NCBI GenBank assembly: GCA_040752415.1
Contig: JBFMGU010000186.1
Span: 1 to 21,181 of the forward strand
Source of the DNA: Myxococcota bacterium
Lineage (GTDB): Bacteria > Myxococcota > JACRCW01
DNA: 21,181 nt
Direction: 5' to 3'
Shown here: positions 7,760-21,181 of the stretch, in pieces
How the letters are laid out: every line of letters begins with the position of its first letter
How positions within the stretch are numbered: position 1 is the stretch's first letter
Position numbers and translations under genes: made by a program
The notes under the pieces: model-generated
Seen by the model: only the letters and a program-made list of their open reading frames with translations
What the model was told of the DNA's origin: nothing
Database searches by the model: none

Positions 7760-10588
7760 GTGTGCGGACGACCTCTCCAGCGCGCGGGGCTCCTGCTCCC
7801 CCTCCTCCTTCACGCCTGCACCCCCGACGACGGAAGCCTGTCCGAGACCGTTCCGCTCGTCACGCCGTCGTCGGACACGGTGACGCTGGGGCCCATCTAC
7901 CCGGGCCAGACCGCAAGCCACACCGTGCGCATCCGCAGCTCCGGGAACGGCGCGGTGACCGTGCGGGGTGCGCGTGTCGACGGGGATTCCACGTTCTCGG
8001 TGCAGCCGCTGGCGTCGCGCACGTTGCAGCCGGGGGAGTCGCTGGACGTTGCGGTGACGTACACCTCACCCGCGCCGGGGGCGGCCGAGGGAGTTCTCAT
8101 CGTCGACAACGACTCCCGGAACGCGCCCGAGCTGCGGGTGGGCCTGCGCGGTGAGACCGTCGACACGCCGCTTTGCGACGACGGCAACCCGTGCACCGAC
8201 GACACCTTCGACGTGAACGCGGACCGGTGCATCACCACCTTCAACACGCTGCCCTGCAACGACGGAAGCGCCTGCACCTTCGACGATCACTGCGTGGAGG
8301 GCGCGTGTCGCGGGAGTGCGGTGGAGTGCCAGCCGTCCAATCCCTGCCAGCGCGCGGTCTGCAACGCCGCCACCGGTTGCGTCTCGCTGGATGACCCGAC
8401 CATCTGTGACGACGGAAACCCCTGCACCTCCGATCTCTGCGACGCACAGACCGGCTGCATCCGTGAGCCCGCGCCCGACGGAACGGGGTGCGGCGGCGCG
8501 GAGGGCTGCGTGTCCGTGCGCCTGTGCGTCTCCGGCGCGTGCGAGGCCTTCCCCGCCCCCGACTGGACCCCATGTGACGACGAGAACATCTGCACGGTGA
8601 TTGACCGGTGCGTCTCCGGCGCGTGCCAGGGCACGGACTCGACGGAGGCGCCGGCCATCGTGGGACAGGCGTTTACGTGGGGCGGACCGGGCGCGGCGGT
8701 GGCGCGGGTGGAAGCAGGATTTGTCGTCGTGGATGGGCAGGGAACCGTGACGGCGCACGAGGTCGTCGAGGACTTTGTTGAGACGCAGCTCATTCCGTTT
8801 GATGAGCCGCTCATTCTCTCCAACGCCACCGGTGTGTACGCGGGAGCCATTGCCGCGGCGCCGCACTACGTGGCTACCGCGATGTACGAGCCCGACGGCA
8901 CGGTGAGCACGCAGCTCTTCAGCATGAACCCCGCGGTGGGCGGAAACCTGGGCAGGATCACGGGTCTGGCGGCCAACGCGTTCCTTCCCAGCGGCGACTG
9001 GCTCTACGCGTGCGGAACGGAGCTCAACGTCGTCGACGTCTCGGATCTCAGCTCACCGGTGGTGGTGGCTTCGGCGCCGCTCAACGCGGTGTGTCGCGGC
9101 ATGGTGTTGGGGACAGGCATCCTGGTGGCCACCGACGACGGCATCAAGCGGTTCAACATCTCCGGGCCCGTGCCGGTGCTCGACGCCACGTTCCTCCCGG
9201 GTGAGGACATCCGCGACATCGATACGATCAACGGGATGATCTACGTCGTGAAACCGGACCAGCAGCTCGGCCAGGAAGGCAACGTCTTCGGCTACCAGGA
9301 GAGCGGTGGTGACCTCGAGGAGCACGTCCACCTGGCGAACTACACGTGGATCTCCATCCGGACGCAGGGCCAGCTGCTCGCGATGATCCATGACCGCGGG
9401 ACGAGCGGGCGACACTCGCACGAGCTGCACGTGTTCGACATGACCACCCCGCAATCCCCGGCGCTGGTTGCCGGCGTGACCATCTCGCTGCCGCGCTCGG
9501 GCGGGACGGTGGAGCTCAATGAACCTTTTGTCCTCGTGACGTCGGAGGACCGGAGCGTGCAGGTGTTCCGCCTCACCGGTCAGATGGGTCCCCAGGCGCT
9601 CCAGCGCGTGGCCGACCCGCAGCATGGGGCCATGCAGGTGGCGGTGTCGCAGGTGGCGCACAACGTGGTCGTGTCGTCGGACTCCGCGCGTGCGGTGGCG
9701 CTGAACAACGTGGGTGTTCCGTTCTTCCTCGTCGGGGGCGTGTTCGATCATCCCGCGGACCTCGTGGCGGCGGGAGAGCCACCGGTGCCGTCGTTCCTGC
9801 TGGTGCCCCGTGCGCCGACAGGCGGAGAGCCGCTCCGCATCCCGCGGCGCCCCATCTCCTTGGGCGAGCGCTGGCTCTGGGTGGACGCTCACGACGGAAC
9901 GTCGGCCACCATTGCCTCGCGAGACATCCCCTCGTTCATGAACGCGCGTGGCGACGGAAAACGCGTCTACCTGGCATCCGTGGACATCTACGCCAGCCCC
10001 AACGTCGCCAACCTGGCCATTCACGATCTGGCGCTGGAGCCGCAGACCCTGGGCGTCCCGTTGCAGCCTCCGCAATCCTTCAGCCTGGTCGTTGATCTTT
10101 CCGGCTCGGACGCGTTCCCGGCGCCGGATGGGCTGGGGCAGATGACCGCGCTCGTCGTGCTGGGTGACAGGGACGGTGTGCCGGCCTCCGCGCTGGCCAC
10201 GTTCTCCACCGCCGACGGCGCACCGCCGCAGCTCACCGGCACGGCGCGGGTGGATGAGCCGGTGATCAGTGTGTTGCCGCGCGGCGACACGGTGGCCGTG
10301 TTGCTGGCGGACCGACTGGAGATCCGCGAGGCAACCGGAACGCTCGACGTGATCACGTCGGTGGACCTGACGGGTGCGCACCACATCCTCGCGTTTGATG
10401 GAACCACGGTGGTGATGACGACGTCACGCGGCGTGGATTTCGTGCGGGTGACGGGGAACATGGCGCAGGTGATCGGGTCGCTGCCGGTGCCGTGGCATAC
10501 GTCGTCGGCGCTGGTGCAGGACGACCGTCTCCACCTCATCTCCCCCACCGCCTACACCGTGGTTTCTCCGCCGTGTCCGTTGCAGTGA
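7760..10588 (+). CDS. Large surface lipoprotein: Ig-like (ASH/choice-of-anchor D-like) domain, Cys-rich repeats and beta-rich (LVIVD/propeller-like) C-terminus
   Basis: In-frame GTG 7760 gives MCGRPLQRAGLLLPLLLHAC (lipobox-like Cys). Ig-like segment VTLGPIYPGQTASHTVRIRSSGNGAVTV...TLQPGESLDVAVTYT. About six CDDGNPCT-type repeats. LNVVDVSDLSSPVVV and LHVFDMTTPQSPALV motifs. The track start at 7175 overlaps the transporter and is rejected. Confidence 0.8.
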   Translation: MCGRPLQRAGLLLPLLLHACTPDDGSLSETVPLVTPSSDTVTLGPIYPGQTASHTVRIRSSGNGAVTVRGARVDGDSTFSVQPLASRTLQPGESLDVAVTYTSPAPGAAEGVLIVDNDSRNAPELRVGLRGETVDTPLCDDGNPCTDDTFDVNADRCITTFNTLPCNDGSACTFDDHCVEGACRGSAVECQPSNPCQRAVCNAATGCVSLDDPTICDDGNPCTSDLCDAQTGCIREPAPDGTGCGGAEGCVSVRLCVSGACEAFPAPDWTPCDDENICTVIDRCVSGACQGTDSTEAPAIVGQAFTWGGPGAAVARVEAGFVVVDGQGTVTAHEVVEDFVETQLIPFDEPLILSNATGVYAGAIAAAPHYVATAMYEPDGTVSTQLFSMNPAVGGNLGRITGLAANAFLPSGDWLYACGTELNVVDVSDLSSPVVVASAPLNAVCRGMVLGTGILVATDDGIKRFNISGPVPVLDATFLPGEDIRDIDTINGMIYVVKPDQQLGQEGNVFGYQESGGDLEEHVHLANYTWISIRTQGQLLAMIHDRGTSGRHSHELHVFDMTTPQSPALVAGVTISLPRSGGTVELNEPFVLVTSEDRSVQVFRLTGQMGPQALQRVADPQHGAMQVAVSQVAHNVVVSSDSARAVALNNVGVPFFLVGGVFDHPADLVAAGEPPVPSFLLVPRAPTGGEPLRIPRRPISLGERWLWVDAHDGTSATIASRDIPSFMNARGDGKRVYLASVDIYASPNVANLAIHDLALEPQTLGVPLQPPQSFSLVVDLSGSDAFPAPDGLGQMTALVVLGDRDGVPASALATFSTADGAPPQLTGTARVDEPVISVLPRGDTVAVLLADRLEIREATGTLDVITSVDLTGAHHILAFDGTTVVMTTSRGVDFVRVTGNMAQVIGSLPVPWHTSSALVQDDRLHLISPTAYTVVSPPCPLQ
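8174..8632 (+). repeat. Protein-level Cys-rich tandem repeats (Dictyostelium CTDC-like)
   Basis: CDDGNPCTDD, CNDGSACTFDDHC, CQPSNPCQRAVC, CDDGNPCTSDLC, CGGAEGCVSVRLC and CDDENICTVIDRC. Confidence 0.8.
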
Positions 10589-12775
10589 TCACGGTGCGGT
10601 CACGCGCACCGCGTTGTTCCCCGCGCCCAGCCCGTCCAGGAAGTCCGCCGCGGTCTGCTGTGCCTGGTCCACCGGGTTCTGGATGACCATCGTCGACGGA
10701 CGGTCCACGAACGGCGGGAATCCAACGTCGACCTCGCTGTCTTCCTGGCGACGTGTCAGCACGCCGTGTGTGGCGGGATGGAACTGCACGTACGCCACGG
10801 TGGCGCCGTTCACGTTGCCCCGCAGCGGCGCGTCGACGACCGGCATCCTTCCGTAACGCAGCTCGGGCCGGTCGGCGTGACGGAGGGCGTGCGCACCTGC
10901 CTGCATGGCCATGGACTCCTCGGCCTGGTTGGGCACCGCCTCGTCGGAGAAGGGGGCGATGAAGAGGACATTGCGCGCCGGATGGCCGCCGGGGAAACGC
11001 GCCAGCAGCGGAGCGAACGCCGCCGGATCCGCGACGTCGATGGCGTTCTGGTAGAGCTGCAGCTTCCACTCGCGCTCGGGCGGGAAGGCCTCGTAGTTCA
11101 CGGTGAGGTCGGGGTTGAGCGAGTCCCGCAGCGCCAGGTTCTGGTACAGGAACAGGCCGAACGGCGGGCCATACTGCGGACTGTTCATCAGCAGATCCAC
11201 GACGAGACCACCACCTCCCACGCTGAACACCGCGCCGGTGATGCGCGGCTCCATGGCCACAATGGGCACGCCGTGAATGGACCCGTAGCTCTCGCTGGCC
11301 CAGTAGACGCGCGCCGGATCAAACCCCAGTCCCGCGAACCCGGTCAGCCCGTCGACGAGAGGCGCCTTTTCTCCGTCGAGGATCGCCCGCACGAAGCCGA
11401 ACACGTCGGCGTGTCCCTGGCGCAGGCTGTCGCGCACGATCGTCGGGGCCATGGGCTGCAGGCCGGGTGTGTCGCTGGTGATGCCGAGTGAGCGAAGCGC
11501 GTGATCCAGGCCTGCGCTGTCGCCGATTCCGTCGGGCTGGTTGTCTCCGGTGATGTTGTTCTTGGCGTCGCGGGCGGGCAGGGGCGGGGTGCGGCTTCCG
11601 TGGAAGGGCAGGTCAATGCCGGCCACCGCGTATCCTCGTCGACAGAATTCCTCCGCAATCACCAGGACCTCGCTCCGCTGGCCGCCGAGGCCGTGCTGGT
11701 AGACGAGGAGGGGCAGGGCGCTGACGTCGGTGACGGTGTTGGGAAGGACCAGCGTGAACAGGATGTCCTCGTAGCCCTTCACGACGGGCGCGCCGTTCGC
11801 GTCGAACTCCATGACGCCGTTGAAGCCCGCCACGGCGGAGTTGAACAGCGGCGCACGGAACGTCCCGTGGATCACCTGCGCCACCGACGCGTGTGGCACC
11901 GCACCGTCTTTCACGCCAAGGCCAGTGAACGAAGGAACGCCGAAGAGACGGTCCAGGTCGTAGCCCTGCTTGGGGAAGACGTCGGTGCGCACCAGCGTCG
12001 GCGAGGGCTCTGCGTAGACGGCGTTGCGCAGCGCCTGCAGCTCCACCTCCGCTTTCTCGATCGTGAACACCGTCGCCACGGCCACCTCGGCGGGCGCCAC
12101 TTGCAACGTTTCCAGCTCGGCCAGAAGGTCCTGCACCATGGCGTGGGCCGGGGCACAGCCTGTGAAGAGGAACGGCAGCTCATCGCGCGGGCACACGCCC
12201 AGCAGCGCCCTGGTTCCCTCGCTGGCGCGCACGGGTTGTCCGTCCTCGCCGGTGATCTTCGTCGTCACCACGCCGGCGTATTTCTCTCCGCCCAACAGGC
12301 GCTGGCCGTAGTCCGGCGACAGGAACAGCCTCCGCTCGTCGGCGCGGTAGGCCACGCGCGCGGGAATGCGCTGACCCTTGTGCGGACCGCTGATGCCCAG
12401 GATGAACGCCGCGGTACCCTGCGCGGACGCCTCCGCCGACGCCGGCAACGACGACACCGCGAGCGGCTTGTCGAACGTGAACATCACCGCGGCGGTGCCG
12501 CTGAAGCCGTGGCGCTCCGCCAACGCGGCGGCCAGTCGCTCGTGGAAGGGCTTGGTGTCGACGTCACGGTCCTCACCGAAGTCCGGCAGCAGCACGGAGA
12601 CGCGGCCATCCTTCCGCGCCAGGTCGGTGGGCCAGGGATACTGGGTGACGTCGAGCGGGAGGCTGGGCTCCGGGGCGCCGTGGATGCCCATGGGACCGGT
12701 GCCCTCGGGTTGGGAGCGCGGACACGCGAGCGTGGCAAGCAGCAGGAGAACGGATGCGCAGCGGATCATCGGCAT
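10589..12775 (-). CDS. Lipoprotein alpha/beta-hydrolase (extracellular lipase/phospholipase, Pla-1/cef-like)
   Basis: ATG 12775 (or 12769) gives MPMIRCASVLLLLATLAC (lipobox TLAC). Motifs LLVYQHGLGG, GIDLPFHGSR, nucleophile elbow WASESYGSIHG, candidate acid FSDEAVPN and candidate His ATHGVL. The upstream part of the 1507-aa track ORF is antisense to slt. Confidence 0.78.
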   Translation of the reverse strand: MPMIRCASVLLLLATLACPRSQPEGTGPMGIHGAPEPSLPLDVTQYPWPTDLARKDGRVSVLLPDFGEDRDVDTKPFHERLAAALAERHGFSGTAAVMFTFDKPLAVSSLPASAEASAQGTAAFILGISGPHKGQRIPARVAYRADERRLFLSPDYGQRLLGGEKYAGVVTTKITGEDGQPVRASEGTRALLGVCPRDELPFLFTGCAPAHAMVQDLLAELETLQVAPAEVAVATVFTIEKAEVELQALRNAVYAEPSPTLVRTDVFPKQGYDLDRLFGVPSFTGLGVKDGAVPHASVAQVIHGTFRAPLFNSAVAGFNGVMEFDANGAPVVKGYEDILFTLVLPNTVTDVSALPLLVYQHGLGGQRSEVLVIAEEFCRRGYAVAGIDLPFHGSRTPPLPARDAKNNITGDNQPDGIGDSAGLDHALRSLGITSDTPGLQPMAPTIVRDSLRQGHADVFGFVRAILDGEKAPLVDGLTGFAGLGFDPARVYWASESYGSIHGVPIVAMEPRITGAVFSVGGGGLVVDLLMNSPQYGPPFGLFLYQNLALRDSLNPDLTVNYEAFPPEREWKLQLYQNAIDVADPAAFAPLLARFPGGHPARNVLFIAPFSDEAVPNQAEESMAMQAGAHALRHADRPELRYGRMPVVDAPLRGNVNGATVAYVQFHPATHGVLTRRQEDSEVDVGFPPFVDRPSTMVIQNPVDQAQQTAADFLDGLGAGNNAVRVTAP

Positions 12776-12910
12776 GGCACGCGGCAACGTAGCAGAGGCT
12801 TGACCCAGCCTGGTGCACCGGAGCCCTGATGACGTCGGACAAGGCGGACGTGGGCTGGTTCTTGAGCCAGGAAATAGCGATGTCGCGAGGCCGTTGGTAG
12901 CGTCCCACCC

Positions 12911-15265
12911 GTGCGACGGAAGAGCCTTGCCCTGAGCACCGTGTTGCTCCTGGCCCTGGGGGGACCTGCGGCCCAGGGTCGTCCCCGTCCGCCACCGCCT
13001 CCCAGCGCGGAGGAGTTCGAGCCCACCGCGGAATCCAACGACGACATCGAGGACCTGGAAGGCGCGGTGGGGCTCACCAATGCGGCCCAGCTCTACCGCA
13101 AGCGGGACTACCGCGGCGCCCTCGCCGAGCTCGCCGTTTTCGTCGGGACCAATCCGCACAGTCCGCACCTGGCGCGCGCGCGGTTCGTGATGGCGCAATG
13201 CCTGCGTGAGCAGAAGCGGTTCGAGGACGCGGCGGCCATCTACGCTGACCTGGTGCGCGTCTACCCGCTCATGGCCGACGACAGCCTGTTCGAGCTGGGC
13301 AAGACGCGGAGCGCGCTGGGCGATCATGGCGGCGCCGCGGAAGCCCTGGCACGCATCAGCCGTGAGTACCCTCGTTACGGCGAGGCGCAGCGGCTCATGG
13401 CGTGGTCGCTGTACAAGGCCGGCTCCCACGAGGAGCTCGTCAAACGCCTCGGCCAGGCCGACGAGGAGGGCGCGGTCCGCACCCCGGAGCAGCGTTATGT
13501 CCTGGGTCTCTCCCGCCTGGCCCTTGGCGACGGAGCCAGTGCCGCCGCCGACTTCCGCGCCGCGCTCATCGGTGCGCCGTTGACGTCGCTGGCTGCTCGC
13601 TCGCTGGACAAGCTGGTGGGCATCTCCGTCGAGGGGAAGAACGTCTACAAGGAGTCGGAGCGCAAGGCCGTGGCCGCCAGCCTGCCGCGTCTTTCCGCCG
13701 CCGAGCCCGAGGCCATGCCGCGCGCGTTGGCGGAGCTGGAGGGCAGGTTGGGACCGGGGCGTCTCCTCGGCGAGGTGCGCTTCGCGCGGGGTGAGGCGCT
13801 GTTGGTGTTGGGACAGCTCAGCGTGGCGGAGGGCTCGTTCCTGGATGCGTACAAGGCGTTGTCGTCGGATCCCGCGCTGCGCTCCCGCGCCAAGCTGCGT
13901 GCCGCCGACGCTGCGCGCATGCAGAACCGCTTCGGTCGCGCGCTGGAGCACTACCGCACCGCACGGGAGAGCCCCTACGACGTCGACGTGGAAGCCGCGC
14001 TCTTCGGCGTCAGTGAGATGGCCTCCCGCCTCACCCGCTACGACGAGGCGCGCCAGGCCCTGCACGAGCTGCTGGTGCTCAATCCGCTGACGCGCAGCCG
14101 GCCGCGTGCGTTGTGGTCCTTGGGCTGGATTGAGTACCGCGCGGGGAACATGGACGGTGCGCGGCAGTTCTTCCGCAGTCTCGTCGAGGAGGGTGTGCGC
14201 GGTGGCGTGGGCAGTGGTGAGCCGCGCGCGTTGTACTGGATGGGACGCACCAGTGAGCGGCTGGGTGATCGGGCGGATGCGCAGCGCGTGTATGAGCGCG
14301 TCGTCAATGAGTACCCGGTGAGCTACTACGCCGGCCTCGCCGAGCAGCGCCTGTTGGGCATGGAATTGCCGTCGGATCCGTGGCCGCAGACCATGGTGCG
14401 TCCCGCGTCGGAGTCGCACGCGTGTCCCGGTCCGGCGCCGGGTCGGGGTGCGCTGCCAGGTGCCTCCGACGCGCAGCTCCTCCGCGCCAAGGAATTCGTC
14501 CGTCTCGGATTGCTCGACGAGGCGCGCCAGGCCCTGGATGGGTTCAGCGCGCGCGTCACGCCGTCGACCAACGAGGAGGACCAGCTCGCCGCGCAGTTCC
14601 AGCCCCGTCCCGCGGACCTCGAGGAGGCGGTGGCGCTCAACCAGCAGCTTGGGCGTGGCAAGGAGGCGTTCACGCTGCGTCAGTTGCAGGTGGAAGGCTT
14701 CCTCCCCGCGCGCTCCCTCGACGTCCTCACCGACCACCTCCACCGCAGCCACCCGCGCAAGTTCGCCGTCTACATCGAGAGCAACGCACAGAAGCAGGGC
14801 GTGAACCCGCTGCTGGTCTACGCGCTCACGCGCACGGAGAGTCGTTTCCGTCCGGAAGTGGTCTCCAACGCCGACGCGCACGGCCTCATGCAGCTCATCC
14901 CCGAGACCGCCGCGGTCATGGCCGCGGATCTCGGGCTGTCCCCGCCCAGCCGCGTGGCGCTGCACAACCCGGAGCTCAACGTGCGGCTCGGGACCGTGTA
15001 CCTGCGCCGGCTGCTGCGTCGCTTTGGCGGTGAGCCCGTCTACGCCCTGGCCGGCTACAACGCGGGTCCCCAGGCGGTGGAGCGCTGGCAGCGGGAGCGC
15101 GGAACCGGGCAAGTGGATGAATTTGTTGAGGAAATCCCGTTCGATGAAACGCGGCTCTACGTGAAGAAGGTGCTGGCCAGCTACCGCATCTACGAGCGCC
15201 TCTACGGGGACCCCGGCTCCCGCGCCATCCCCCGGAAGCGCGACGCCATGGCGGCGGCGGAATGA
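12911..15265 (+). CDS. slt: Soluble lytic murein transglycosylase with N-terminal TPR-like helical repeats (Slt70-like)
   Basis: Signal peptide MRRKSLALSTVLLLALGGPAAQG and TPR-like repeats. SLT motifs RTESRF (catalytic Glu), GLMQLIPETA, AGYNAGP and IPFDETRLYVKKV. Confidence 0.92.
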   Translation: MRRKSLALSTVLLLALGGPAAQGRPRPPPPPSAEEFEPTAESNDDIEDLEGAVGLTNAAQLYRKRDYRGALAELAVFVGTNPHSPHLARARFVMAQCLREQKRFEDAAAIYADLVRVYPLMADDSLFELGKTRSALGDHGGAAEALARISREYPRYGEAQRLMAWSLYKAGSHEELVKRLGQADEEGAVRTPEQRYVLGLSRLALGDGASAAADFRAALIGAPLTSLAARSLDKLVGISVEGKNVYKESERKAVAASLPRLSAAEPEAMPRALAELEGRLGPGRLLGEVRFARGEALLVLGQLSVAEGSFLDAYKALSSDPALRSRAKLRAADAARMQNRFGRALEHYRTARESPYDVDVEAALFGVSEMASRLTRYDEARQALHELLVLNPLTRSRPRALWSLGWIEYRAGNMDGARQFFRSLVEEGVRGGVGSGEPRALYWMGRTSERLGDRADAQRVYERVVNEYPVSYYAGLAEQRLLGMELPSDPWPQTMVRPASESHACPGPAPGRGALPGASDAQLLRAKEFVRLGLLDEARQALDGFSARVTPSTNEEDQLAAQFQPRPADLEEAVALNQQLGRGKEAFTLRQLQVEGFLPARSLDVLTDHLHRSHPRKFAVYIESNAQKQGVNPLLVYALTRTESRFRPEVVSNADAHGLMQLIPETAAVMAADLGLSPPSRVALHNPELNVRLGTVYLRRLLRRFGGEPVYALAGYNAGPQAVERWQRERGTGQVDEFVEEIPFDETRLYVKKVLASYRIYERLYGDPGSRAIPRKRDAMAAAE

Positions 15266-17340
15266 CGGGGTGGTGGGCTAACATGCCCGGCCGCATGCAC
15301 GCGCTCCGACTGCCACTGGCCTTGTCCCTGGTGCTCTTCTCCTTCGCCGCCGGCTGTGGAGGCTGCGGTCAGACTCCCGGAACGTGCGAGTCCAGCGACC
15401 AATGCGCCGCCGGGGAGTCGTGCGTGAACGGCGCGTGCACCACGGAAGGCAGCAGCTCCGGTTTGACGGCGAGCAGCAGCAGCAGCGGCGGCCTGGTCTA
15501 CTGCGACCTCGACAGCGAGTGCACCGCCGAGGAGTACTGCAACCAGACCATCCACGCGTGCGTCTCCAAGCATGACTGCGACACCGAGGCGGACTGCGAC
15601 CCCGGCCAGGAATGCCGCGACTTCGACGACCCGCCCGATGGCTTCCGCGAATGCGGCTACCCGGGCTGCAATGACGACGAGGATTGCGAGAAGGAGCTGG
15701 GTGACTGCGGGGAGGGGCAGCGTGCGCGGTGTCGGGCCCGTGCCTGCGTGTGTGAGGGCGCGTGCGGCGGCGACTGTCCGACGGGGAATCTGTGCTGCGG
15801 ACTGGAGCCGTCGTCGCAATGTGGAGATCAGCCCTGCTGCATTGCGGACCCGGGTCCCTGTCCCGACCAGGTGTGCTCGCCGGGCTTCGAGCCCAACTCG
15901 GCCACGGGCGCGTGGAGCGTGGACCTGTGCAACTACCTGAACACCCAGTGCGGCTGTCAGGAGCTGCCCGCGTTGCCGCTTGGTGACGTCGGGAATCCGT
16001 CCTCCATTGGCATGGATGGGACGGGGAAGCTCTGGGTGCTGGCGTACAACTCCACCTACGGCGACCTGATGCTCGGCGAGGTGCAGACCGACCGCAGCGT
16101 GGACTGGACGTTCCTCGACGGAGTTCCCGTGGGCGGCGCGGTGACCGGTGGGCCTTCCGGGCCGCGTGGCGGAGTCGCCGAGCCCGGTCCCGACGTCGGG
16201 AAGTACCTGGACATGGCGGTGGCCTCCGACGGCACCGTTCATGCTGTGTACCAGGACAGCACGAACGGGATCCTGAAGTACGCCCGCGTGGAGCAGGGGA
16301 ACGTCACGCGCTTCACGTTGGACAACGAGCGGGAGACGGGTGTGTACCCCACCATCGCGCTGGACCCGAGTGGGGCGCCGCGCGTGGCGTGGTTGGCCCG
16401 TCGTGTCGACGTGGGCGGGACGCCGTACGGACGCCTCAAGCTGTCCGCCGCGCGCGACGCCACGCCGGGCGGGGTCACCGACTTCGTGGTGCACGTGCTC
16501 AAGGAGGTGGATCTCACCACCGTGCCGTGTGAGGGCGGCTGTGCGGAGGGATACAAGTGCGCGTCGGCGGAGGCGCCGGCCATCCCCACCTGTGAGGAGG
16601 AGCTCGACGACAGCGCGTGCTCGGCGGACTGCGGGACGGGCGCGTTCTGCTCCGCGGGTGGCTGCGTGGATGAGCACGCGGGGTCCAATCTCCGCGGCAT
16701 CCCCGAGGGGCCGGGCGTGTGGCCCTCGCTGGCCATCCGCGCCGACGGGAAGCCCATCCTTGTCGTGTATGACTCATTTGACGCGGACCTCGTGCTGCAC
16801 ACCACGCAGGGCGGGGACCCGGTGGACTCGACGGAGGCGCGCTTCACCTCGCAGATCCTCGACGGGAACGGCTCCGACGCGGGCTTGTGGCCGCAGGTGG
16901 CGGTGGACGTGTCGGGACAGGCGCACGTGGTGTACGTGCACAACGTGACGCGCGCGCTCCTGCACCAGACGCTGGACGGCACGCTGTCCACCATCTCCAC
17001 GGCCACCGTCGACGACGCGGCGCGCGTGGTGAACAACGCCTCCGACCTGCACCGCCTGGCCGAGCCTGCGCTCAGCATCCGCTCCGACGGCGTGGTGCAG
17101 GTGGCCTACCAGGACGGCACCACCGGGGAGCTGTTGTTCTGCAGCCAGAATGGCAGCGCGTATGACCGGAGCACGCTGGCGGGTGGTGGGACGGGGACGT
17201 CTTTTGACGGTCTCTACGGCTTCTCGACGGACGTGGCGGCCCGTGGCTCGGGCGCGCCGGTTGTTTCCACGTTCAAGAAGCGTCCCGACGCCGTGGACCC
17301 GCAGCCCAGGGGCGAGCTGGTGTTCTTCAATTGGCCGTGA
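15262..17340 (+). CDS. Cys-rich lipoprotein with a beta-propeller-like C-terminal region
   Basis: Lipoprotein-like signal LALSLVLFSFAAGCGGC (Cys codon 15355). Dense CxxDxxC repeats over about 15385-15957. Repeated motifs of the type IALDPSGAPRVAW, LAIRADGKPILVVYD and VAVDVSGQAHVVY. ATG 15262 overlaps the slt stop (ATGA); alternative starts are 15283 and 15295. Confidence 0.8.
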   Translation: MTGWWANMPGRMHALRLPLALSLVLFSFAAGCGGCGQTPGTCESSDQCAAGESCVNGACTTEGSSSGLTASSSSSGGLVYCDLDSECTAEEYCNQTIHACVSKHDCDTEADCDPGQECRDFDDPPDGFRECGYPGCNDDEDCEKELGDCGEGQRARCRARACVCEGACGGDCPTGNLCCGLEPSSQCGDQPCCIADPGPCPDQVCSPGFEPNSATGAWSVDLCNYLNTQCGCQELPALPLGDVGNPSSIGMDGTGKLWVLAYNSTYGDLMLGEVQTDRSVDWTFLDGVPVGGAVTGGPSGPRGGVAEPGPDVGKYLDMAVASDGTVHAVYQDSTNGILKYARVEQGNVTRFTLDNERETGVYPTIALDPSGAPRVAWLARRVDVGGTPYGRLKLSAARDATPGGVTDFVVHVLKEVDLTTVPCEGGCAEGYKCASAEAPAIPTCEEELDDSACSADCGTGAFCSAGGCVDEHAGSNLRGIPEGPGVWPSLAIRADGKPILVVYDSFDADLVLHTTQGGDPVDSTEARFTSQILDGNGSDAGLWPQVAVDVSGQAHVVYVHNVTRALLHQTLDGTLSTISTATVDDAARVVNNASDLHRLAEPALSIRSDGVVQVAYQDGTTGELLFCSQNGSAYDRSTLAGGGTGTSFDGLYGFSTDVAARGSGAPVVSTFKKRPDAVDPQPRGELVFFNWP

Positions 17341-17515: not shown

Positions 17516-17548
17516 AAAGACCGCGTTCCCGTCGTGGGAAGCCCGGTC
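17516..17548 (-). terminator. Possible weak intrinsic terminator after nuoB
   Basis: Interrupted hairpin GACCG..TTCCC/GGGAA..CGGTC (17519-17548) overlapping the nuoB stop, followed by only TTT on the minus strand. Confidence 0.3.
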
Positions 17549-18104
17549 ACGGCAGGATGGCGCGCTTTTCCTTCTGCACCTTGTCCTGCAGCATGATCAG
17601 TGCGTCGAGCACAGCCTCCGGGCGCGGCGGGCAGCCCGGGATGTAGACGTCGACGGGGATGATGTTGTCGATGCCCTGCACCACGGCGTAGTTGTCGTAG
17701 AACCCGCCGCTGGACGCGCAGACACCGAAGCTGATGACCCACTTGGGGTCGCACATCTGCTCCCAGACGCGCTTGAGGGCCGGCGCCTGCTTGTGCGTGA
17801 TGGTCCCGACGACAAACAGCAGGTCCGCCTGACGCGGCGAGAACCGCGGGAACTCCGCGCCAAAGCGCGCAATGTCATAGCGGGGCGCCCACACCGCCAT
17901 GAACTCCATGCCGCAGCACGCCGTCACGAAGGGGTACTGGAAGAAGCTGAACTTGCGCGCCCAGTTCACCGCCGGGCTCGCCACCTCGTTCACCTTCTCC
18001 TTGGCGGCCTGCGCCAGCTTGCCAAAGAAGCCCAGCGCCTCGTCGCGCCGGGTCAGCATGACGTCGTTCTGGACCAGAGCCTCATCACCCTTGAACGTTG
18101 CCAT
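17547..18104 (-). CDS. nuoB: NADH-quinone oxidoreductase subunit B
   Basis: N2 cluster ligands [16 protein letters not shown] and [10 protein letters not shown]; also [26 protein letters not shown]. Starts 3 bp downstream of nuoA. Confidence 0.95.
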
Positions 18105-18107
18105 GCG

Positions 18108-18464
18108 TCACTCCCACTCCAGGGCGCCCTTGCGCCACACGTAGATGAGCCCCACCACCAGCACCGCCACAAACACCGCCATCTCCACCAGGCCAAACAG
18201 GCCCAGCTGCCGGTACATGACGGCCCACGGGTAGAGGAACACCACTTCGATGTCGAAGACGATGAACAGCAGCGCCACGAGGTAGAAGCGCACGCTGAAG
18301 CGCTGACGGGTGGTGCCCACGCTCTCACTGCCGCACTCGAACGGGAGCTGCTTGATCTTGGTGGGCTTCTTGGGGCCAATGAACTGGCTCAGCGCCAGCA
18401 TGGCGCCCGCGACGGCCATGCCCAGCAGGATGAGGAATGCAGCGCCGGCGTAACCTTGATCCAT
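18108..18464 (-). CDS. nuoA: NADH-quinone oxidoreductase subunit A
   Basis: 118 aa from ATG 18464 with three TM helices; [32 protein letters not shown] and C-terminal WRKGALEWE. Confidence 0.95.
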
Positions 18465-18586: not shown

Positions 18587-18622
18587 GCCCTCCCCCCTTC
18601 AGCGCCACAACGACGAGGCGGC

Positions 18623-19291
18623 ATGACCACCACCCACGCCCTGCACGCCACCCCGGAGCGAAGGCTGGCCTGGCACTTCCTGCTGCGACGCCTCCACAGC
18701 CTCTCCGGGATGCTCTCCCTGGGCGCGTTCATGGTGCTGCACCTGTGGGGCCTGTCCCGCATGGCGTATGGCGGGCCGGAGGCCTACAACGTCGTGGCGG
18801 CGGCGCGGCGGAGCGCGGCGTACCTGGTGCTGGAGGCCCTCCTGGTGGGCATCCCGCTCATCTTCCACGCCGTCTATGGCCTCATCATCACCCGCGACGC
18901 GCGCCCCAACGTCGGCACGTTCCCCACGTGGTCCAATTGGGTGTTCGTGCTCATGCGTGTGACCGGCGTGATTGCCCTCGTCTTCGTCGTGGTGCACTTC
19001 TTCAACACGCGCGTGCAGGAGCTCTTTCTCGGTCGTGAGATCGACGCCGCGTTCATGCAGCGCGTGCTCCGTCCCATCCCCATGCTGGACTTCTACATCC
19101 TCGGCGTCATGGCCTGTGCGTTCCACCTGGCCGCGGGCACGTGGAGCTTCCTCATCCGCTGGGGCATCACCATCACCGCGCGCTCGCAGCGCGTTGCGGC
19201 GGTGTTGTGCGGGACGTTCGGCCTCCTCCTGACGGCGCTGGGCGTGCACGTGGCCGCCGCCTTCCACGACCCCAAGTACATCATCCCCTGA
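18623..19291 (+). CDS. sdhC: Succinate dehydrogenase cytochrome b558 subunit (type B, Bacillus-like diheme anchor)
   Basis: RRLHSLSG, MVLHLW, IFHAVYG, MRVTG, VVHFF..R and AFHLAAGTWSFLIRWGIT; five TM helices. ATG 18623 follows a GAGG RBS. Confidence 0.88.
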   Translation: MTTTHALHATPERRLAWHFLLRRLHSLSGMLSLGAFMVLHLWGLSRMAYGGPEAYNVVAAARRSAAYLVLEALLVGIPLIFHAVYGLIITRDARPNVGTFPTWSNWVFVLMRVTGVIALVFVVVHFFNTRVQELFLGREIDAAFMQRVLRPIPMLDFYILGVMACAFHLAAGTWSFLIRWGITITARSQRVAAVLCGTFGLLLTALGVHVAAAFHDPKYIIP

Positions 19292-19300
19292 GGCAACCCC

Positions 19301-20950
19301 ATGGCGTCGGGCTTTCGATTCGTGGTGGTGGGCGAGGGGCCGGCGGCGCTCATGGCGTCGGTGCACCTGGTGCGGGCGGGGCACCACGTGGACTTGCTCT
19401 CGGCGGACCGTGAGGTTTCCACGGACGTCTCGTTGAACGCCACGCTCGACGGGGACAGTGCCTCCCTGCACGCGCAGGAAACGCTGCGGGCCGGTGATCT
19501 CCTCGGGAGCGGGCCGCTGGTGCTGGCCATGGCGGAAGCGGCGCCGGCGCTGGTGCACCTGCTGGACCGCATGGGGGTGCCCTTCCATCGCACCGCCGAG
19601 GGGCGGCTGCAGCGACGACAACTGGCGGGATCCAGCGTGGCGCGCTCGGTGTTCGCGGGCTCCGCCACGGGATTCCAGGTGCAGCGCGCGTTGGCGCAGC
19701 AGCTCCTGGGCGCGGAGCCGGGCACGTTCCGCCAGCTTGAGGGCTGGGAGTACCTGGGCCTGATCCGCGACGAGAACGGCGCCGCTTCGGGCGTGGTGGC
19801 GGTGCACGTGTGGACGCAGGCCATCGAGGTGTTCGACGCGGACGCCGTGCTGCTCGCCACGACGGGGCCTTCGCAGATCTACGGGAAGTCCACGCAGGGG
19901 CTGCACGCCACCGGCGCCGCGCTGGCCAGTGCGCTCGTCGAGGGCGCCACGTATGCGAACCCCGAGATGATGCAGTTCCATCCGTTGGGCGTGCCCGGCC
20001 CGGATGGCCACCGGTTCATCAGTGAAGCCGCGCTCGCCGACGGTGCGCAGCTCATGATCGACGGGCAGCGCGTGATGCCGGAGCGCTTGGATGACCTGGC
20101 GCGCAAGGTGTCCAGCCACGACGCGGTGTTGCACCTGGGCTCCATCGCCCGCCCGACGCTGGACGCGCGGTGGGAGCTGCTGCTGCGCACGCATGAGAAG
20201 CTGACCGGGCAGGATCTCCGTCGCCATCCGTGCAAGGTGGTCCCGGTGCCGCACGTGAGCCTGGGTGGGCTGCAGGTGGGCGTGGCGTCGGACAAGAACG
20301 GCAAGCTGGTGGAGGAGAGCGCGCGGAACCAGCAGACCACCGTCGCGGGCCTGTACGCCGCCGGCGACGCGGGCGCGGGTTACCACGGCGCGAACATGCT
20401 CGGCGGGAACCGCCTGCTGGCGTCGTTGTTCTCCGGTCAGCTTGCCGCGCGCGCCATGATGTTCCATGCACAAGCGCGTCCCCAGCGTGCGCCCGCCACC
20501 GACGTCGTCGACGCCACGCGGCGTTGGCGCGACCGGATGCGTGCGTTGGCGGACATGAAGGGCGCCGAGAGTCCGCGCAAGCTCCACGACGAGCTCGGTG
20601 CGCTCATGACCCGCGCGTGCGGCCTCAACCGTGACGACGCGCAGCTCGACGAGGCGCTCACCGTCGTGCGCGCGCTCAAGGAACGCGGGAAGGCCCTGGG
20701 TGTGAGCGACCCGACGACGACGCTGCTGGCGCACCGCCTCCAGCACATGCTGACGCTGGCGGAGATCACGGTGATGGGCGCGCGGGCACGGGCGGAGTCG
20801 CGCGGGGTGCACCACAAGCCGACGCTGCCCAACCGCAATGACACGGCGTGGGAGAAGGTGACGCTGGTGCGCCTGGGTGCCGAGGGCCCCGAGGTCACGC
20901 ACGAGGCGGTGGAGACGGGAATGAACCCGCCGCCGGAGCGGATTCCCTGA
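19301..20950 (+). CDS. sdhA: SdhA-like flavoprotein subunit with degenerate FAD-binding and catalytic motifs
   Basis: Collinear with recalled Bacillus-type SdhA: AMAEAAPALVHLLDRMGVPFHRTAEG, EGWEYLG, YGKST, QFHP, GLYAAG, LHDELGALMT and ESRGVHHKP. Key motifs are altered (see findings). The 549-aa ORF is uninterrupted. Confidence 0.8.
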   Translation: MASGFRFVVVGEGPAALMASVHLVRAGHHVDLLSADREVSTDVSLNATLDGDSASLHAQETLRAGDLLGSGPLVLAMAEAAPALVHLLDRMGVPFHRTAEGRLQRRQLAGSSVARSVFAGSATGFQVQRALAQQLLGAEPGTFRQLEGWEYLGLIRDENGAASGVVAVHVWTQAIEVFDADAVLLATTGPSQIYGKSTQGLHATGAALASALVEGATYANPEMMQFHPLGVPGPDGHRFISEAALADGAQLMIDGQRVMPERLDDLARKVSSHDAVLHLGSIARPTLDARWELLLRTHEKLTGQDLRRHPCKVVPVPHVSLGGLQVGVASDKNGKLVEESARNQQTTVAGLYAAGDAGAGYHGANMLGGNRLLASLFSGQLAARAMMFHAQARPQRAPATDVVDATRRWRDRMRALADMKGAESPRKLHDELGALMTRACGLNRDDAQLDEALTVVRALKERGKALGVSDPTTTLLAHRLQHMLTLAEITVMGARARAESRGVHHKPTLPNRNDTAWEKVTLVRLGAEGPEVTHEAVETGMNPPPERIP

Positions 20951-21181
20951 TGGCCGCGTGGTTGGTCCTGGGGCTCACCGCCGTGGTTTCGGCGCAGGAG
21001 CCGTCGGTGGCCGCGGAAGAGCCGCGCCCGACGGAGAGTCCCGTCAGTGTCGACGAGGAAACGCGCGAGATGAAGGCCACCGCGCCCGCGGCGACCGAAG
21101 TCCAACCCCAGGCCGCTCCGACGAGAAAGCCGGCAACGCCCAAGGAGCCCAGCCGTTTTCCGACGCCAGTGGGGTGGGCCG
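20950..21181 (+). CDS. Hypothetical exported Pro/Ala/Thr-rich protein, 3' end outside the window
   Basis: ATG 20950 overlaps the sdhA-like stop (TGATG). Manual translation gives MAAWLVLGLTAVVSAQEPSVAAEEPRPTESPVSVDEETREMKATAPAATEVQPQAAPTRKPATPKEPSRFPTPVGWA, open to the window edge. Confidence 0.65.
   Translation, partial: MAAWLVLGLTAVVSAQEPSVAAEEPRPTESPVSVDEETREMKATAPAATEVQPQAAPTRKPATPKEPSRFPTPVGWA

Follow-up and report, generated by a model that had tools for sequence, protein, structure and literature searches.

An eroded SdhA paralogue in a second complex-II-like operon of a Myxococcota bacterium

Complex II is among the best understood of the respiratory enzymes, and its flavoprotein is normally the most conserved of its subunits. 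Here, we describe a gene for a divergent member of this flavoprotein family, sdhA', in a stretch of DNA of 21,181 nucleotides (the window) that represents the entire contig C97 of the genome of a Myxococcota bacterium (the host genome, G000). Judged by its sequence, the encoded protein SdhA' is not a canonical succinate dehydrogenase flavoprotein, and its gene belongs to a second complex-II-like set, the members of which are marked here with primes (sdhC', sdhA' and sdhB'). With moderate confidence, we interpret SdhA' as a non-catalytic subunit that binds SdhB' and has been kept by selection as part of an iron-sulfur (Fe-S) and dihaem module that is still functional.

19301..20950, plus strand: sdhA', 549 amino acids, SdhA family with an eroded flavin and dicarboxylate site; stop codon TGA at 20948-20950

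The domain architecture of the SdhA/FrdA family is present in SdhA', with a FAD_binding_2 domain (PF00890, 124.8 bits, residues 8-372) and a Succ_DH_flav_C domain (PF02910, 79 bits, residues 429-547), in agreement with an earlier note on this DNA that had described a full-length SdhA homologue with its scaffold and helical domain. The top NCBIfam match is PRK08641, the Bacillus subtilis-type SdhA, at 376.1 bits against a cut-off of 855, and the score for TIGR01811 (296.5 bits) is likewise below its cut-off of 541.35. None of the 25 families listed for SdhA' reaches its curated NCBIfam cut-off, and no SdhA, FrdA or NadB model passes. The frame is open and free of frameshifts and stops, as had also been claimed: a tblastn search with seven homologues gave one full-length high-scoring segment pair in frame +1 and nothing convincing in the other frames of the sdhA' DNA, and all insertions and deletions are in-frame. 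The guanine-cytosine (GC) contents at the three codon positions (0.75/0.49/0.905) are like those of genuine genes of the host genome.

Two other assignments were considered and rejected. The identification of SdhA' as a NadB is contradicted by a score of 181.2 bits for TIGR00551 against a cut-off of 452.75, by the loss of motifs, by the position of the gene between sdhC' and the X/sdhB' genes described below, and by the presence of a true, canonical nadB on contig C445. An antisense open reading frame (ORF) of 767 amino acids (18599-20902, minus strand) was interpreted as a shadow frame, as it has no Pfam match and both the homology and the pattern of GC at the third codon position (GC3) lie on the plus strand. 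Shadow frames such as this one, which extends over sdhC' and sdhA', are typical of GC3-rich genes.

The residue states of SdhA' were read on the DNA and compared with those of E. coli SdhA (1nek_A) and the 119 nearest database proteins, with the following results for the flavin and dicarboxylate sites.

19331..19348, plus strand: dinucleotide-binding loop, GEGPAA (G11-A16), for which the commonest state among the homologues is GGGLAG
19409..19432, plus strand: segment for covalent attachment of flavin adenine dinucleotide (FAD), REVSTDVS (R37-S44) for RSHSVCAQGG, with the His absent and the AQGG loop deleted or replaced
19856..19867, plus strand: ATTG (residues 186-189) for the ATGG of the homologues
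20021..20047, plus strand: SEAALADGA (residues 241-249) for SESxRGEGG, with Ser and Glu kept, Arg replaced by Leu and Gly by Ala
20117..20119, plus strand: His273, at or near the position of the catalytic proton-donor Arg (E. coli SdhA R286, FrdA R287), with the cap around it shortened
20396..20398, plus strand: Met366, replacing the Arg for substrate binding and flavinylation (E. coli SdhA R399, FrdA R390), HGANMLG for HGANRLG

These losses had been described in the earlier note, and with a single correction they are borne out by the DNA. The dinucleotide-binding loop is abnormal in comparison with the homologues, and its Pro14 and Ala16 are common to the orthologue in the sister genus (genome G001). 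The segment that corresponds to RSHSVCAQGG has a deletion of 3-9 residues, Arg37 is aligned to E. coli His45 and no His is found nearby, and the residue for the 8-alpha-N3-histidyl-FAD bond (FrdA H44, SdhA H45) is missing. The cap region has been shortened in-frame at three places, by about 13, 23 and 8 alignment columns, and the position of the catalytic Arg is occupied by His273 in two alignments, by a gap in three others and by Arg in none. The correction concerns the extra Arg near Met366, which had been placed four residues further on and which is R371, five residues past Met366. SdhA' retains both of the active-site histidines, again as stated before, namely His227 (QFHP) and His318 (HVSLGG), together with Ser241, Glu242 and the C-terminal ESRGxH, GLYAAGD and HGA motifs.

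The roles of the corresponding residues in FrdA are described in PMC5773532, where H44 is the flavin ligand, R287 the proton donor and R390 a residue needed for both substrate binding and flavinylation, and where the roles of H232, T244, E245 and H355 are likewise given. The dicarboxylate and catalytic set (FrdA H232, T244, E245, R287, H355 and R390) is incomplete in SdhA', from which the equivalents of R287 and R390 are gone.

In an AlphaFold2 model based on an alignment of the homologues, SdhA' is predicted to have an SdhA-like fold, with a predicted local distance difference test score (pLDDT) of 92 and a predicted template modelling score of 0.93, and the best match of the model in the PDB is 9a55_A, with a template modelling score (TM) of 0.93. 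The predicted complex of SdhA' and SdhB' obtained an interaction prediction score from aligned errors (ipSAE) of 0.93 in three of three runs, compared with 0.00 for the best of three controls, with a contact agreement between runs of at least 92% and a partner pLDDT of at least 90. Of 157 solved complexes, 116 attained the mark used for ipSAE, as did 2 of 215 mismatched pairs, and our own alignments were used. However, this is a textbook pair of which a like complex has been solved, and the score may therefore show likeness rather than binding.

The genes for a membrane anchor and an Fe-S subunit accompany sdhA', the former directly upstream and the latter on an abutting contig, C50. A further gene, here called X, lies between sdhA' and sdhB'.

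18623..19291, plus strand: sdhC', five-helix dihaem cytochrome b of the b558 family; TIGR02046 94.5 bits against a cut-off of 96
20950..21181, plus strand: 5' part of gene X, a signal-peptide-like, Pro/Glu-rich membrane protein, the ATG of which overlaps the sdhA' stop (TGATG); runs off the contig
26879-27397 of contig C50, minus strand: 3' part of gene X, followed by sdhB' and a histidine phosphatase gene
26140-26883 of contig C50: sdhB', B. subtilis-type, at the very end of the contig

The operon order is thus sdhC'-sdhA'-X-sdhB', split across the contigs C97 and C50. The stop codon of sdhC' (TGA, 19289-19291) overlaps a GAGG that lies 7 nucleotides ahead of the sdhA' ATG, and X, which encodes two helices and a conserved C-terminal block, forms overlapping start/stop junctions with both of its neighbors, sdhA' and sdhB'. 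Both partners have kept their cofactor ligands. In SdhC', the haem-ligand histidines H40, H82, H125 and H168 are all present, and four His are invariant in all five of the SdhC proteins aligned; in SdhB', the 11 cluster cysteines are all kept in G000, G001 and a third genome, G401, as they are in 29 of 29 aligned SdhB proteins. The earlier note had proposed a search of the genome for a canonical sdhCAB, and such an sdhC-sdhA-sdhB set, with every motif present, was found on contig C201. Convincing matches to gene X were obtained only from G000 and G001 among 401 genomes of the phylum, in a stricter first look; none was seen in a scan of metagenomes, no Pfam family was matched and the matches in an atlas search were all below 0.9.

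The join between C97 and C50 rests on synteny with G001. The contigs share no exact end overlap; the G000 halves of X each align with a different end of the one-piece X in G001, which implies that C97 and C50 abut inside this gene. Since the host genome is a metagenome-assembled genome (MAG) of 520 contigs with a contamination of 4.29%, and since the operon is distributed over two contigs, we considered the possibility of an assembly artefact or a contaminant contig. This seems highly improbable to us, as the same gene order, including the single-copy nuoAB, is present on one contig in G001, and as the GC content and the codon-position GC match those of the host genome.

G001 is the only other genome from the same family as G000. 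One of its contigs contains nuoB-nuoA next to sdhC', a gene for an SdhA' of 415 amino acids, X (231 amino acids), sdhB' and the histidine phosphatase gene, and in both genera the four sdh' operon genes are all undamaged and have overlapping junctions. The G001 protein, which is named 'FAD-binding protein' by NCBI, has no His segment, like its counterpart in G000, and a database search with it returned only itself.

More distant relatives place the two proteins in a larger group. A word-indexed search of 5.8 billion clusters gave no homologue of SdhA' above 36% identity, and a hidden Markov model built from the two orthologues matched 7273 of 1.84 billion representatives at E <= 0.001. Among the 140 listed matches of at least 430 amino acids, 112 are without the His, 98 without the catalytic Arg and 81 without the R399 equivalent, with 63 lacking all three and 14 having all five of the residues checked, but these counts are not natural frequencies, since the profile is biased toward degenerate sequences and NadB-like proteins normally have no His. 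The named matches are 'FAD-binding protein' or 'FAD-dependent oxidoreductase' from MAGs of the Polyangiaceae, Myxococcales, Deltaproteobacteria and Acidobacteriota.

A phylogeny was inferred with IQ-TREE from 52 chosen sequences, namely the 2 queries, 18 members of a group of 600-700 amino acids, 12 of a shorter group, 13 canonical SdhA proteins and 7 others. The SdhA' proteins of G000 and G001 are sisters inside the 18-member myxobacterial clade, with a support of 84.9 in the Shimodaira-Hasegawa-like approximate likelihood ratio test (SH-aLRT), or 96.2 with P0126 and P0131, and this clade is in turn sister to SdhA of Sorangium and Labilithrix (SH-aLRT 99.4), with the reservation that the groups were delimited on an earlier FastTree tree and that long-branch attraction is possible. 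The terminal branch of the query measured 2.5 in the first FastTree tree and 0.59, like its neighbors, when the clade members were included. The query groups with the clade in the tree, has no catalytic Arg and occurs in an sdhC-sdhA-sdhB context.

The clade is diverse: relative to P0135, the first aligned member, the identities of its 18 members amount to only about 37-57%. None of the 18 has the catalytic Arg; the covalent His occurs in 2, R399 in 11, H354 in 8 and the HPT His in 12, and most members keep GxGxxG, xTGG, AxGE and HGA. Among the 194 columns that are at least 90% conserved in the 13 canonical SdhA proteins, 77 are kept in the clade, 58 have lost their constraint, 57 are intermediate and 2 have a new conserved residue. 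The G000 protein holds 62 of the 77 columns kept in the clade, compared with 64-75 for the clade members. The erosion is thus a clade-wide pattern that is not private to SdhA'. The earlier description of a selective loss is correct in that the losses are real, but it needs to be qualified, since the catalytic positions are variable in the clade, which represents a loss of constraint with no new conserved residues. The absence of new conserved residues at these positions argues against a defined new active site, and the pattern is the one expected where catalysis has been lost and the fold maintained, not where a new active site has become fixed.

Similar operons were also seen elsewhere. Locus L069, in a Polyangiaceae MAG (genome G401), contains an sdhC' with four His, an eroded SdhA' (P0144) and an sdhB' with 11 Cys; like G000, the same genome encodes a NadB and a further SdhA, which is of a different type, but no canonical B. 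subtilis-type SdhA. In a metagenome scan with an alignment of five sequences as the query, 36 of 79 loci were examined and the SdhA motifs were readable in 35, of which 26 are canonical at all visible motifs and 9 deviate. The latter are L080, L100, L095, L110 and L113, the less eroded L115, and three loci with single losses, L101, L102 and L089. Where the flanks extend far enough, the genes of the scanned loci follow the order sdhC-sdhA-sdhB. This order fits all eight clade-like loci for which DNA was available (G000, G001, L069, L080, L095, L100, L110 and L113), where L080 has no sdhC in the flank seen, L113 ends before any sdhB and the order in G000 is deduced across two contigs. The SdhA proteins with single losses are otherwise canonical, Sorangium-like and located in sdhC-A-B operons, with a Ser at the place of the catalytic Arg in L101 and L102 and an Asn at that of the covalent His in L089; they may represent early steps of the same erosion. 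When P0126 was used as a probe in the 401 phylum genomes, only matches of 33-37% to canonical SdhA were obtained (132/401, G195 included). No description of such eroded SdhA proteins was found in the literature searched, which included passages of PMC12727194 and PMC5773532.

Apart from the clade, a second and shorter group of eroded SdhA-like proteins was observed (about 440-590 amino acids; P0127, P0130, P0137-P0139, P0143 and others), many of which are without the cap region. Within this group, 17 proteins annotated as 'FAD-binding protein' form an Acidobacteriota cluster. At locus L033 (G019:C77, 2108-4245), a canonical sdhA is found in two frames with a run of the letter X between them, which could be a masked stretch or a frameshift.

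The divergence between G000 and G001 was estimated gene by gene as amino acid identity and as the ratio of non-synonymous to synonymous substitution rates (dN/dS), using the crude method of Nei and Gojobori from 1986 (NG86).

nuoB, G000 vs G001: identity 82%, dN/dS 0.20
canonical sdhA, G000 vs G001: identity 82%, dN/dS 0.23
nadB, G000 vs G001: identity 77%, dN/dS 0.27
sdhC', G000 vs G001: identity 40%, dN/dS 0.80
sdhB', G000 vs G001: identity 37%, dN/dS 0.76
X, G000 vs G001: identity 43%, dN/dS 0.51
sdhA', G000 vs G001: identity 31%, dN/dS 0.86

The operon, with SdhA' as its extreme case, is much less constrained than the housekeeping genes. The canonical pairs of the two genomes are 82% identical for SdhA and 69% for SdhB, and in comparison with the enzyme of G035, a genome with a canonical set, SdhA' is 35% and SdhB' 51% identical, the reverse of the usual order in which SdhA exceeds SdhB. 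This divergence is what would be expected under slow decay, in which the second complex II is redundant beside the other sdhCAB and the whole sdh' operon is drifting to loss, with its frames open only because stops are rare in DNA of 70% GC and little time has passed. The length of the 767-amino-acid antisense ORF shows that long frames easily stay open in such DNA. Nevertheless, we consider it rather unlikely that decay accounts for the operon.

Several observations nonetheless weigh against a subunit retained by selection, a number of them also in favor of decay. The non-synonymous rates of sdhC', sdhA' and sdhB' are 4-6 times those of nuoB, canonical sdhA and nadB (dN 0.65-0.81 vs 0.13-0.19), and their crude dN/dS values are 0.76-0.86, compared with 0.20-0.27 for the same three reference genes. 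In amino acid composition, SdhA' is the extreme among 120 homologues, with the highest fraction of the residues GARP (0.368) and the lowest of FYMINK (0.117 vs 0.18-0.27), and this shift to GC-rich codons, together with the rise of GC at the first codon position to 0.75, is the expected outcome of relaxed constraint in a genome rich in GC. The erosion is also progressive and lineage-specific, with catalytic positions that vary across the clade. The G001 protein has lost the entire cap domain and the HGANRLG motif, its codon-position GC is flattened (0.82/0.61/0.85), it holds only 36 of the 77 clade-conserved columns and its predicted fold, with a pLDDT of 72, is poorer than that of G000. SdhA' itself differs at three flavin-proximal Gly columns that are kept by the clade (G16A, G44S and G188T), and conservation at the predicted SdhA' interface does not significantly exceed that of the rest of the protein (17/47 vs 98/345, p = 0.31). 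The single-residue losses in the metagenomic relatives L101, L102 and L089 look like ongoing inactivation. The bias of the profile and the way in which the clade was delimited, both mentioned above, count on the same side.

Other observations speak against decay. The four genes are intact in two genera with overlapping start and stop junctions, the insertions and deletions in sdhA' are all in-frame and sdhA' still has, at 0.49, the second-position GC typical of coding genes. The ligands of SdhB' and SdhC' (11/11 Cys and 4/4 His) are fully kept although the proteins are only 37% and 40% identical between G000 and G001. Furthermore, the fraction of positions at which SdhA' retains the consensus of the homologues climbs with the conservation of the column, from 9% at variable to 65% at invariant columns. 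The identity between the two orthologues is also concentrated in the family-conserved columns, with 57 of 138 identical compared with 43 of 188 at less conserved columns (Fisher p = 4e-4), and 77 scaffold columns are kept across the 18 members of the clade.

As for the rates, the pairwise NG86 method is saturated and unreliable here, canonical SdhA pairs at 53-61% identity giving values that span 0.14-0.77, and for this reason the value of 0.86 for the G000 and G001 pair is not readable as neutrality. Two pairs of eroded SdhA proteins at 60-62% identity give 0.14 and 0.42, which is inside the canonical range. The comparison of orthologues and their dN/dS, as proposed in the earlier note, has thus yielded an orthologue in G001 and a recurrence of the losses in the clade, together with a ratio for sdhA' that is high but saturated. 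The same note had left open the choice between retention for a role other than succinate oxidation and slow decay. The evidence leans to retention rather than decay, because the partners keep their cofactor ligands, because the sister genus has an orthologue and because the clade has diversified with a conserved scaffold.

Retention could in principle also mean that SdhA' is an active oxidoreductase, with FAD bound non-covalently as in NadB and the soluble fumarate reductases, and with a substrate less anionic than succinate, or else that it is a mere electron relay between the Fe-S chain and some acceptor. His227, Glu242, His318 and the ESRGxH, GLYAAGD and HGA motifs are kept, the GxGxxG, xTGG, AxGE and HGA motifs of the clade suggest that flavin binding has probably been retained in the clade at large, and GxGxxA is presumably a tolerated variant of the dinucleotide loop. 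The loss of both Arg would make the pocket less cationic, and the intact SdhB' and SdhC' are what would be expected if electrons still flow. We nevertheless judge an active enzyme to be unlikely. In the clade, only 2 of the 194 canonical columns have been re-fixed and the catalytic positions are variable, four flavin-contacting Gly-rich loops have been altered together in the G000 protein, and the G001 orthologue is without the cap domain and the HGANRLG motif.

The interpretation that we favor, a non-catalytic subunit retained by selection, could be explained as follows. SdhA' would be the flavoprotein-derived subunit of the second complex-II-like set, sdhC'-sdhA'-X-sdhB', located beside nuoAB. 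The clade would descend from an enzyme of the B. subtilis type (dihaem, type B) in which the constraint on the dicarboxylate and flavinylation site was lost, such that SdhA' would be unable to carry covalent FAD or to perform canonical succinate oxidation or fumarate reduction. Succinate oxidation would be taken over by the canonical sdhCAB on C201, while selection would maintain SdhA' as a cap that is folded, binds SdhB' and has essentially no catalytic activity, with weak flavin binding at most, and that sits on an Fe-S and dihaem membrane module in which all cofactor ligands are intact. We infer the binding to SdhB', the absence of catalysis and the working module from the residues, the operon and the clade. 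A further suggestion, which we put forward tentatively, is that the clade has uncoupled the Fe-S and dihaem module from dicarboxylate chemistry: SdhA' would be a dead or flavin-carrying lid, the module a quinone-linked electron conduit re-used for some other partner, and X a membrane subunit added in this family and coupled in translation to SdhA'. If true, this would add a new functional class to the relatives of complex II.

The closest known counterpart is the B. subtilis-type SdhCAB (type B, dihaem cytochrome b558, succinate:menaquinone), with which the set shares the PF00890 and PF02910 domains and the top match to PRK08641, the five-helix SdhC with 4 His, the SdhB with three cluster motifs and the gene order C-A-B. 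It differs in that SdhA' is only 35-38% identical, is about 76 amino acids shorter, has a shorter cap and has lost key residues, and in the presence of gene X between sdhA' and sdhB'. The nearest canonical relatives are the myxobacterial B. subtilis-type SdhA proteins of Sorangium, Labilithrix (P0103, P0042), G035 and G012, and the sdh' operon lies outside the icd-mdh-sdhAB-sucCD cluster of the latter two. In these genomes (loci L031 and L032), the genes icd-mdh-sdhA-sdhB-sucC-sucD form a cluster with no adjacent sdhC, and the closest match to SdhC lies on a different contig.

SdhA' has the same fold as the flavoproteins of the E. coli FrdABCD and SdhCDAB complexes (1kf6 and 1nek; TM 0.86-0.89), with the equivalents of FrdA H232, E245 and H355 kept, but unlike FrdA it is without equivalents of H44, R287 and R390. 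It resembles NadB, in which FAD is non-covalent, in having no covalent His and in its length, whereas the NadB of the host genome itself keeps AQGG, ATGG, RGEGG, the catalytic Arg and HGANRL, and stands alone. Catalytically dead paralogues that are kept as scaffolds or regulators are known as pseudoenzymes, the pseudokinases being one example. SdhA' is like them in that its full-length fold is kept, its catalytic residues are lost or variable and its scaffold columns appear to be constrained, whereas a partner-binding or regulatory function of SdhA' is putative. A dead flavoprotein subunit within a complex II had no precedent in the literature searched.

What sets this system apart is that the catalytic site is gone while the Fe-S and haem partners keep every ligand, and that the pattern recurs in a diversified clade. 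If the module is functional, the electron-transfer unit of SdhB and SdhC would be re-usable without succinate chemistry, and the annotations 'succinate dehydrogenase flavoprotein' and 'FAD-binding protein' would overstate the capacity of these organisms for the tricarboxylic acid cycle and respiration. If it is instead decaying, the proteins would provide a rare graded series of the loss of a multi-subunit redox enzyme, from the single residue to the deletion of the cap.

Upstream of the sdh' operon, the window contains two genes for subunits that are encoded on the opposite strand.

18108..18464, minus strand: nuoA (PF00507), divergent from sdhC'
17547..18104, minus strand: nuoB (PF01058)

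These genes form an isolated two-gene unit away from the other nuo genes and are the only close copies in the host genome; the isolated pair adjoins the sdh' operon also in the sister genus. Two large secreted proteins that are Cys-rich or repeat-bearing are encoded further upstream on the plus strand. The product of 15262-17340 has no Pfam family, and that of 7790-10588 has one short match above the cut-off to PF00526 (Dictyostelium repeat) and weak matches to immunoglobulin-like domains below the cut-offs. Between them, a 1500-amino-acid ORF without a Pfam match (10589-15277, minus strand) lies opposite a gene for a TPR and SLT transglycosylase protein (12878-15262, plus strand), and at least the part of the ORF that is opposite this gene is probably a shadow frame.

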